Assembly (NCBI RefSeq): GCF_006345805.1
Contig: NC_042998.1
Span: 158,906,001-158,970,000, forward strand
Direction: 5' to 3'
From: Octopus sinensis
Lineage: Eukaryota
DNA: 64,000 bases
Both the position numbers and the translations under genes were made by a program. Below are positions 17,075-19,665 of the stretch, piece after piece. Below the pieces are notes generated by a model that was not told the origin of the DNA, searched no databases, and saw only the letters and a program-made list of their open reading frames with translations. Within the stretch, counting starts at the first letter, position 1, and every line of letters begins with the position of its first letter.

Positions 17075-17539
17075 GGAGAGGGTAAACGTTTTTATTTCTC
17101 TTTCCATTTCAGAATTACAACTATTAGTGGTTTGGAGTTTGGCTGCTCTTTCTAGTGAGTCGAATGTCCTATTATGGCCATTCATTATATATTTGAATAT
17201 ATATATATATATATATAATATATATATATATATATATATATATACATATATATACACACACACACACACACACACACACACACACACACACATATATATA
17301 TATATATATATATATATATATATATATATATATATATTAAATATTTAAATAAATACGTCCCTAGTTGTAAGCATTACCCGCAGTGAATTATTCACTGCAG
17401 CCCTTCGCTTCAGGAGTCTCTTAGTGCGCCAGAACCAAGACATTTGAAATTTATTCCGATGTAATCAGTAAGACTAAGCACGTGTCTGTTTTGACACAGA
17501 GAGCTGGGGTTAGTCTTGCGGTTTGCATCTCGAGGACCG

Positions 17540-17615
17540 AATGTACTGATGAAGTCACGGACACTTGAATTATGCAAGTAATTCTTTTGTTAAGACCGAA
17601 ACCGAGGTATGCATT
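17540..17615 (+). ncRNA. Type I hammerhead ribozyme
   Basis: AATGTA-CTGATGA-a-GTC..GAATTA..TAATTC..GAC-c-GAAA-CCGAGG-TA-TGCATT. Confidence 0.85.
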
Positions 17616-18085
17616 TAAGTCTGTTTTTTATTTAATTTTTCATATGTCCTGCCCGCCAAATTTGGTTCTGGTGTTCGCTGAATTCTTCCTCTAGAGAATT
17701 TCCCTTGTAGTTTGATCGTTGATGATCTTCTTCTAGCATTCTGGCCGTCTACCTAGCAGGCCAGCCCTGCCAATATACACATATATTTGAATTTTCTCTG
17801 ACTCCTCAGATTTTTTGAATGCTGGACTACTGGTTTTAAATTGATATTAAAATTAATATTAATTTATCTCCCTCAATTTTTAAATATTTAAATAAATACG
17901 TTCCCTAGTTGTAAGCATTACCCGCAGGGAATTATTCACTGCAGCCCTTCGCTTCAGGAGTCTCTTAGTGCGCCAGAACCAAGACATTTGAAATTTTATT
18001 CCCGATGTAATCAGTAAGACTAAGCACGTGTCTGTTTTGACACAGAGAGCTGGGGTTAGTCTTGCGGTTTGCATCTCGAGGACCG

Positions 18086-18160
18086 AATGTACTGATGAAG
18101 TCACGGACACTTGAATTATGCAAGTAATTCTTTTGTTAAGACCGAAACCGAGTATGCATT
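18086..18160 (+). ncRNA. Type I hammerhead ribozyme, second unit
   Basis: As 17540, with one G missing in stem III (GAAACCGAGTA). Confidence 0.78.
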
Positions 18161-19665
18161 TAAGTCGTTTGTTTTATTTAATTTTTCATATGTCCTGCCC
18201 GCCAAATTTGGTTCTGGTGTTCGCTGAATTCTCCTCTAGAGAATTTCCCTTGTAGTTTGATCGTTGATGATCTTCTTCTAGCATTCTGGCCGGCTACCTA
18301 GAGGCCAGCCTGCCAATATACACACATATATATAATATATATATATATTATATATATATATATATATATAACATATATCTATGTGTATATATATATATAT
18401 ATACATATATCTATATATATATATATATGTACCTATATATATATATATATATATATATACATATATACACGCACACATGTATAAATACATGCATAATATA
18501 TATAGATAGATATACAAATACATAATATATACACATATACACACATATATACATACATACATATAAATAGATATTCACATTATGCATTAAGTACATTACA
18601 TATACATATGTGTATATGTATGCATGTATAGGTGAAACGTGATGATAGTTTTGTAAGTTATTAACGCAAAACGAGTTTCCGTAAGAGTGAAATTACCGAT
18701 CGTATCCCGAAATTAATGGTCATTCTTTTCAATTTCCGTAAGCACGAAATCCGCTATGTGGTGTCCATAACGCGATGGTAGTGTCTAATGCATTCACCAC
18801 TCCATCATGTGGATATGACTCTCTGACCTTTCTCCCTTCCCTTGCTTCAACTCTCCACATACACTCATCCAACCATCTACTTCCTAGTGCCTACTACCTA
18901 TTCTGCTTTTACATTTCACTCCATAATAATCTTAGATTCTTATCTATCCATCCTAATGAAGGAGGGTCTGGAGTTTACCAATGGTTTTTTTCTTTTCTTT
19001 TATTTTTTTGCTTCCATTAGCGGCTGAAAAGTTTTCATCAGCTACATCAGCCAACATTGAGTAATTCTGAGCACTGAGAAACAGCTGTAGGACCTGTAGC
19101 GCCTTCTTCCCGCCAATTCTTTGAGTCTATGAAATCTGAGTAAGTTAACCCTATAATTATATATGTATATATATATATATATATATATATATATGTGTGT
19201 GTGTGTGTGTGTGTGTGTGTGTGTGTGTGTGCTAGAATGTTTATCATCGTAAAATGTTGTATCTGCTTTCTCTTTTTACATGTATACATGTATATATATT
19301 TTGTACATAAAAACACAAGGTTTTGTCTGCTTATTGGAATCATTGTCTCCATATCAGCTCACCTGGATTCCCTTTATAGCGACTCTTGGTCCCCGGTGAA
19401 GGTATCGGAGTGTAAGTTCAAATCATTTGAGCACTACAAAGTGTTTTCTATATTGAGATTCCCTCGATCTCACTTTTTGTTTGACTTTCTCTCTCCTCTC
19501 GCTCTCTTTCTCTCTCTCTCTCTCTCCATATGCATATCTATATCTATCTATCTATATATATATCTATATAGAAATTCGGGGTAAGCACCTGTATATACCG
19601 TTTGGTGGTGTAGGTGGTGGAGTAAATTGATCAAAATAAAATAAAAACATGATGCGAAGGATTCA

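Follow-up and report, generated by a model that had tools for sequence, protein, structure and literature searches.

One insertion of a young non-coding hammerhead family, probably copied into a TA microsatellite by a Penelope-like enzyme

Two short tandem repeats, each with one putative hammerhead ribozyme per unit, lie side by side in a 64,000-nt window of Octopus sinensis DNA (the whole stretch analysed here). The question is what kind of element the second of them, named here family B, represents, how it came to sit in a TA microsatellite, and whether its place beside the first, family A, carries any meaning. The sequence-only reading described B as about 1.8 units of about 546 bp with a single type I hammerhead in each, and measurement agrees closely: the locus holds 1.83 units, 441 of 445 aligned bases are identical between units (apart from single-base indels), and the hammerhead cores are spaced by 546. 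A scan for paired stems, run over the entire window in both directions, found four hammerhead matches, two in family A (16519 and 16991) and two in family B (17546 and 18092); the positions 17540 and 18086 quoted earlier are the starts of stem I. The gap of about 140 bp to family A, the common strand and the flanking tracts, composed of TA/CA, were likewise as described. Nor does B have an ORF, since the longest ATG frames around the circularised monomer (GC 38%) reach only 20 aa on the plus and 64 aa on the minus strand; the RT plus GIY-YIG reading frame that marks an autonomous Penelope-like element is absent from the B units. The features of the locus are collected in Table 1.

Table 1. Coordinates of the B insertion and its neighbours, in window positions
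Feature	Position	Strand	Remarks
Family A, neighbour	16208..17196	+	inverted arm 16208-16345 and 1.85 units (unit length ~473 bp); hammerheads at 16519 and 16991; ends: one E2-type, one E1-type
TA/CA microsatellite separating A and B (target tract)	17186..17336	n/a	
Family B, unit 1	17337..17879	+	543 bp at this locus; 546 in the family
Predicted type I hammerhead 1 (B)	17539..17616	+	stem I 17539-17545/17610-17616; core 17546-17552; GAAA 17598-17601; A.C mismatch, then 3-bp stem II base and extended stem II; 2-bp stem III; predicted cut after 17609
Fixed end E1	17769..17786	+	unit position ~445-450; putative reverse-transcription start site
Fixed end E2	17870..17889	+	unit junction + ~10 nt; putative second start site
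Family B, unit 2 (partial)	17880..~18324	+	halts at fixed end E1 and enters TA tract
Predicted hammerhead 2 (B)	18085..18161	+	stem III without one G; predicted cut after 18154
TA microsatellite, right flank of B insertion	18325..18574	n/a	
Degraded copy, autonomous Hydra-type Penelope-like element	19571..29053	two opposite arms	junction ~23382; E2 = left end, E1 = right end; hammerheads ~19660-19748 (-) and ~28928-29016 (+)

The B repeat is neither a product of chance nor an artefact. Its exact ribozyme pattern matches 263 times in the genome (G000, 2.72 Gb) against none for a reversed control, a looser pattern matches 451 times, and a DNA search gave at least 126 matches from 40 scored of 1388 candidates, the full-length copies being 96–98% identical. 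Family B is a young, dispersed, non-coding family of a known class, the non-LTR retrozymes; an LTR-type layout was seen in none of the examined insertions. Like the metazoan retrozymes described in PMC7229834 and 10.64898/2026.07.22.740005, for which a Penelope-like helper has been proposed, B is a non-coding, low-GC tandem with one type I hammerhead per unit. Its monomer of 546 nt compares with 170–400 nt in the former description and falls inside the 51–972 bp of the latter. B differs from the retrozymes presented there in forming dispersed insertions of 1–5 units, and whereas circles and cleavage have been shown for published retrozymes (PMC7229834; 10.64898/2026.07.22.740005), B is known here from its sequence. 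A diverged relic related to B lies at 31998-32344 on the minus strand of the window; it matches B at 69% over ~190 nt, and its hammerhead has decayed.

The anatomy of B insertions was read from 104 insertions in 102 loci, comprising 22 of 30 loci from the DNA-similarity search, 20 of 30 from the looser pattern and 60 further fetched stretches. The omitted loci (8 and 10, respectively) overlap or duplicate others, and the sample keeps a few whole-locus duplicates; it is biased to ribozyme-bearing copies on the first contigs, with pattern-match loci taken from the first 100 matches listed. Strand polarity is strict: 3' ends are fixed and 5' ends scattered. Sense 3' ends occupy two sites, E1 (unit position ~450) and E2 (junction + ~10), which bound a 'tail' of ~105 nt, and (TA)4 adjoins 144 of 147 fixed ends compared with 111 of 1828 background bins. 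An inverted arm is present in 57 insertions; 46 of these combine E1 with E2, one has E2 twice, none has E1 twice, and ten carry an irregular end. One end of each kind was therefore found in 46 of the 47 insertions with both ends at fixed sites (p = 7e-13), which leaves the tail at one end. Of the 47 direct insertions, 26 stop at E2, 18 at E1 and 3 elsewhere; the copy in the window is direct and of the E1 kind, with the E1 arm only.

The two arms of an insertion appear to stem from one template. At 241 of 250 subfamily marker positions the opposite arms carry the same state, and 41 of 43 testable insertions agree throughout, while control pairs with shuffled partners reached a mean agreement of 0.53 and a maximum of 0.71 in 2000 shuffles. 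Divergence rises from 0.9% within an arm to 1.35% between arms and 2.6% between insertions. In many cases the two arms cover identical unit positions and bear identical markers; single arms reach 2.3–2.6 kb, double-armed insertions 2.4–2.9 kb, and the inner head-to-head junctions mostly show an overlap of 0–5 nt. Two loci are peculiar. At L186 the segments carry the markers of two subfamilies side by side, which suggests that two templates were used, and at L023:2170-2323 an inverted arm ends exactly at the predicted cut (unit 274), as if primed on the 3' end of a cleaved RNA, a single case.

In L1 twin priming, two target ends prime on one RNA to give a head-to-head inversion joined by microhomology. 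B differs from this scheme in that both start sites are fixed and internal, poly(A) is missing and the arms overlap in copied sequence. The pattern is the 'tail plus inversion' signature of Penelope-like elements, which, as described in PMC8557442 and PMC11167929, share with B the partial tandems, the inverted arm, the tail at one end, two start sites of reverse transcription, an AT-rich or microsatellite target and a hammerhead placed upstream of those start sites. Experiments in vitro on PAc, the anole element, showed two internal start sites bounding the tail and both target strands cut and extended, with a dimer predicted (PMC11167929). There are differences as well: B has no ORF, its tail of ~105 nt is longer than the 30–40 nt of the published elements (PMC8557442; PMC11167929), and its ends resemble the target, being AT-rich like it, whereas the PAc start sites are reported without homology to theirs (PMC11167929). 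Moreover, the pairing of the two sites is near-strict in B, while the PAc experiments reported no strand difference (PMC11167929). The main texts on retrozymes (PMC7229834; 10.64898/2026.07.22.740005) do not describe fixed ends, a tail, inversions or (TA)n targeting, and a literature search for fixed paired ends in retrozymes showed no such paper among those listed, though supplements may contain such data. We hold with high confidence that B is a retrozyme moved by a Penelope-type enzyme, and paired priming at E1 and E2 is likely.

The hammerhead of B is predicted from its sequence to cleave itself. The sequence-only reading had proposed conservation of the core among genomic copies as a test, and the core proved nearly invariant in 24 loci chosen by DNA similarity: U4 shows one change in 51, and only N7 is commonly variable (30 U, 21 A). 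N7 is established as a position free to vary in hammerheads. In older B subfamilies (78–93% identity) stem changes are paired, with 92% of cells paired against 28–40% for slid partners and double-sided changes in 3 of 26 stem pairs; this set holds 16 of 18 distinct sequences, counting that of the window, its shuffle controls ignore relatedness, and it bears on the stems alone, since the search pattern that collected its members already included the core. At its base, stem II has an A.C mismatch in young B and G-C or A-U in some older subfamilies. The fold itself is weak. An Rfam scan of the window gave no match at the gathering score and detected none of its hammerheads; the catalytic fold is predicted to lie 2.6 kcal/mol above the minimum, with a stem II base-pair probability of 0.13, and the ribozyme region has fold z-scores of -0.3 to 0.5. 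The predicted fold of the circular monomer has an MFE of -135 against -113±6 in 60 shuffles (z -3.7). Stem III has only 2 bp and forms no hairpin in the predicted monomer, but two of its strands are predicted to pair as a self-duplex at -6.6 kcal/mol, which fits dimeric action as for axolotl retrozymes. The axolotl HHR_Amex2 shares the short stem III and the mismatch at the base of helix II and cuts better as a dimer (PMC7229834). In the second ribozyme of the locus the absent G, a loss seen in 2 of 178 segments, abolishes the predicted duplex (-1.3 kcal/mol), and may be an assembly error.

What served as the template can be judged from the arms (six complex loci are left out of the two arm tallies). 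The predicted cut site is crossed by 74 of 93 arms and 46 of 102 are longer than one unit; 5' ends do not pile up at the cut site (4 of 153 against 2.7 expected), and none of the 178 segments has inserted bases there. Together these observations argue that the cleaved linear monomer is not the template, which leaves a circle or an uncleaved multimer. A circular template gives the simplest account of the long overlapping arms and of array growth, and we lean towards it. An apparent clustering of cDNA ends at precisely one full round (8 of 102 within 448-466, 3.5 expected) was rejected, with p of 0.02 taken alone and 0.96 over all windows. Among 143 private variants, 124 occur in one unit only, 11 in all units and 8 in some, so that a single-monomer template is not strongly supported.

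The strongest alternative keeps the same two-site priming and replaces the circle by an uncleaved multi-unit linear transcript of longer tandem loci, the hammerhead being a weak passenger and circles playing no part. Uncleaved RNA was the dominant substrate of the anole element in vitro, ribozyme cleavage being unneeded (PMC11167929); the hammerhead of B folds weakly, most private variants are confined to one unit, and arms running over the cut site fit this template as well as a circle. Three long arrays (L141, L155 and L182) have unit variants alternating with period 2, and may reflect either a dimer-circle template or a later two-unit duplication. Linear copying can, however, only shorten arrays, and yet arms attain the lengths given above while at 72 of 102 loci there is no more than one complete same-strand ribozyme (two or more are found in 30). 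A long master array could exist, as array lengths were judged among the first 100 pattern matches listed. The repeated copying of the same unit positions in both arms also speaks against a linear template, and the compensatory changes in the stems speak against a passenger hammerhead. We regard this alternative as rather unlikely, though it deserves serious attention.

Intact RT/GIY-YIG ORFs are present in the genome. A Hydra-type Penelope-like family, 99% alike among its copies, encodes an 842-aa ORF, intact at L216:2588-5113, with the motifs DKT, CxCX5C linker, CxxC, CxH, YRDD and GIY-YIG-like but no CCHH; its RWK motif reads RWA. Pfam gave no RT or GIY-YIG match on this ORF, and its protein relatives are 30–40% identical, a few of them named only as hypothetical or GIY-YIG proteins. 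The (TA)n target, the canonical hammerhead and the clade motifs agree with the Hydra clade as described (PMC8557442); the element had first been read as Neptune-type, an assignment replaced on the basis of the clade motif description in section 11 of that paper. Measured from its ribozyme cut, this element has its ends at +32-45 and +115, each of them in (TA)n, and a tail of ~75 nt; all 8 copies with both ends visible have one end of each kind, although the query was selected for the second end. A degraded copy sits 1.2 kb from the B insertion in the window.

Further likeness lies in the ribozyme. The Hydra-type hammerhead shares with B the A.C pair, GUA and a long stem II, and among 25 other clusters it ranks first for three B queries (z 2.8, 5.4 and 3.7); a covariance model of B scores it at 17.6 bits (E 0.3), below four other matches. 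Outside the ribozyme, no similarity was found between B and the Hydra-type element in 26 Hydra-family loci, and none to B in 30 GIY-YIG loci or 15 longer PLE stretches; B copies carry no attached PLE ORF beyond chance neighbours. A motif of CCC followed by AT-rich sequence, which A, B and the Hydra element have in common at E2, was set aside as post hoc and variable among copies. The young Hydra-type family is the best candidate for the helper of B, at about even odds. A second autonomous family with an abundant intact 781-aa RT/GIY-YIG ORF (L065:2032-4374 and relatives) also ends in TA; it has an upstream 479-aa ORF of no Pfam family and 92-bp repeats in its 3' region, and no canonical hammerhead was found in it. 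Hammerhead motifs are plentiful: the sampled loci (L001-L251) and the window together yield 337, which fall into 26 sequence clusters. Many have palindromic loops on stem III and pairs at 10.1/11.1 that are non-canonical, and they make up a rich uncatalogued landscape. The window also holds a Penelope-type GIY-YIG end (30770-31213) and other retroelement remains (13441-13839, 40092-40883 and 50306-54805), judged from translations as a possible PLE fragment and LINE-like ORFs.

Taken as a whole, the locus is probably one insertion of a young non-coding hammerhead family copied into (TA)n by a Penelope-like enzyme. Tandem B copies would be transcribed, and the weak hammerhead would cut the RNA, probably as a dimer or with protein help, to give monomers that may be ligated into circles. 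A dimeric RT/GIY-YIG protein would cut both strands of a TA tract, and one DNA end would prime at E1 and the other at E2 of the same RNA. Each cDNA would run round the circle. Short homology would then unite the two in head-to-head orientation, or one arm would be lost, as may have happened at the window locus, with the E1 arm left. The most specific version, in which a dimeric Hydra-type enzyme acts on one RNA circle and the two target strands, primed at different fixed sites, give two overlapping cDNAs, is tentative.

Spread at the DNA level has also to be considered, whether by duplication of the satellite kind, by fold-back repair where TA tracts are fragile or by way of rolling-circle DNA, with the ends as break-prone AT-rich spots. 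E1 and E2 are indeed AT-rich and resemble the target, and some whole insertions are duplicated (L024, L146/L147 and L156), but strict strand polarity, the 46 of 47 pairing and the same rule in an RT-encoding element make this explanation very improbable.

The suggestion that A and B share one mechanism and one microsatellite target is supported. Family A has ends at ~390-408 and at junction + ~17, thus two fixed ends about 100 nt apart like those of B, and inverted arms; one end of each kind was read by eye in 11 of 14 inverted A insertions, 3 being unclear or other. The description of the two as unrelated stands in so far as BLAST of A against B gave no match, but it is somewhat overstated, because a cut-anchored alignment scores marginally above shuffles (global 1/300, local 4/300) and the two may be distant kin. 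Identity of A to its other copies is mostly 86–90% against 96–98% for B, which points to A as the older family. A short A-related relic with its own inverted arm lies between TA tracts at 10811-11112 of the window.

The proposal that a read-through transcript of both families would be cut at four sites is not supported as a functional claim. The two families are on the same strand 140 bp apart, and the predicted cuts on the plus strand (16596, 17068, 17609 and 18154) would release pieces of 472, 541 and 545 nt. Yet another hammerhead family lies within 1.5 kb at 17 of 102 B loci (no matches in shuffled loci), A and B differ in age, the fourth ribozyme is altered, RNA reading through both families was not seen, and no other A-B pair of the same form was found among the sampled A and B loci. 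A functional cluster is thus a most doubtful reading, and the adjacency is explained by the shared TA target and the commonness of neighbouring hammerhead families. That the duplication at the B locus is an assembly artefact is scarcely credible: single-base indels between units do resemble long-read errors, but tandems occur at dozens of loci, units differ by substitutions, and contigs assembled from two independent runs read through a head-to-tail junction of B, though not provably from the window locus.

Expression data are neutral. No sequencing run holding B sequence is recorded as RNA; parts of the B unit are covered in contigs from four runs whose RNA nature is a guess, two of them spanning the unit junction, but strand, ends and circles are not readable from them, and this coverage is neither for nor against B expression. 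In three runs guessed to be RNA (X1, X6 and X7) an older B subfamily has deeper contig depth around the ribozyme than the young one. Back-junction reads, suggested earlier as a check, are uninformative, since closing a monomer into a circle gives a junction that reads exactly like the head-to-tail one in the genome.

The window locus and its place beside family A are ordinary; what the analysis adds is the insertion anatomy. How Penelope-like elements form tandem and inverted copies with a one-sided tail is stated to be unresolved (PMC8557442), and the link between retrozymes and Penelope-like elements has so far rested on co-occurrence and pseudo-LTR similarity. Family B adds a counted rule, one start site per end and one template for both arms. 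It also offers a substrate that is short and non-coding in the same genome as a candidate enzyme that is young and intact, which makes the circle-template and dimer models testable in vitro. If these models are true, a single mechanism, rolling-circle double priming, would account for retrozyme tandems as well as for the tail and the inverted pseudo-LTR of Penelope-like elements, dimer circles would give the period-2 arrays, and the genome would harbour at least 26 hammerhead families competing for TA tracts.
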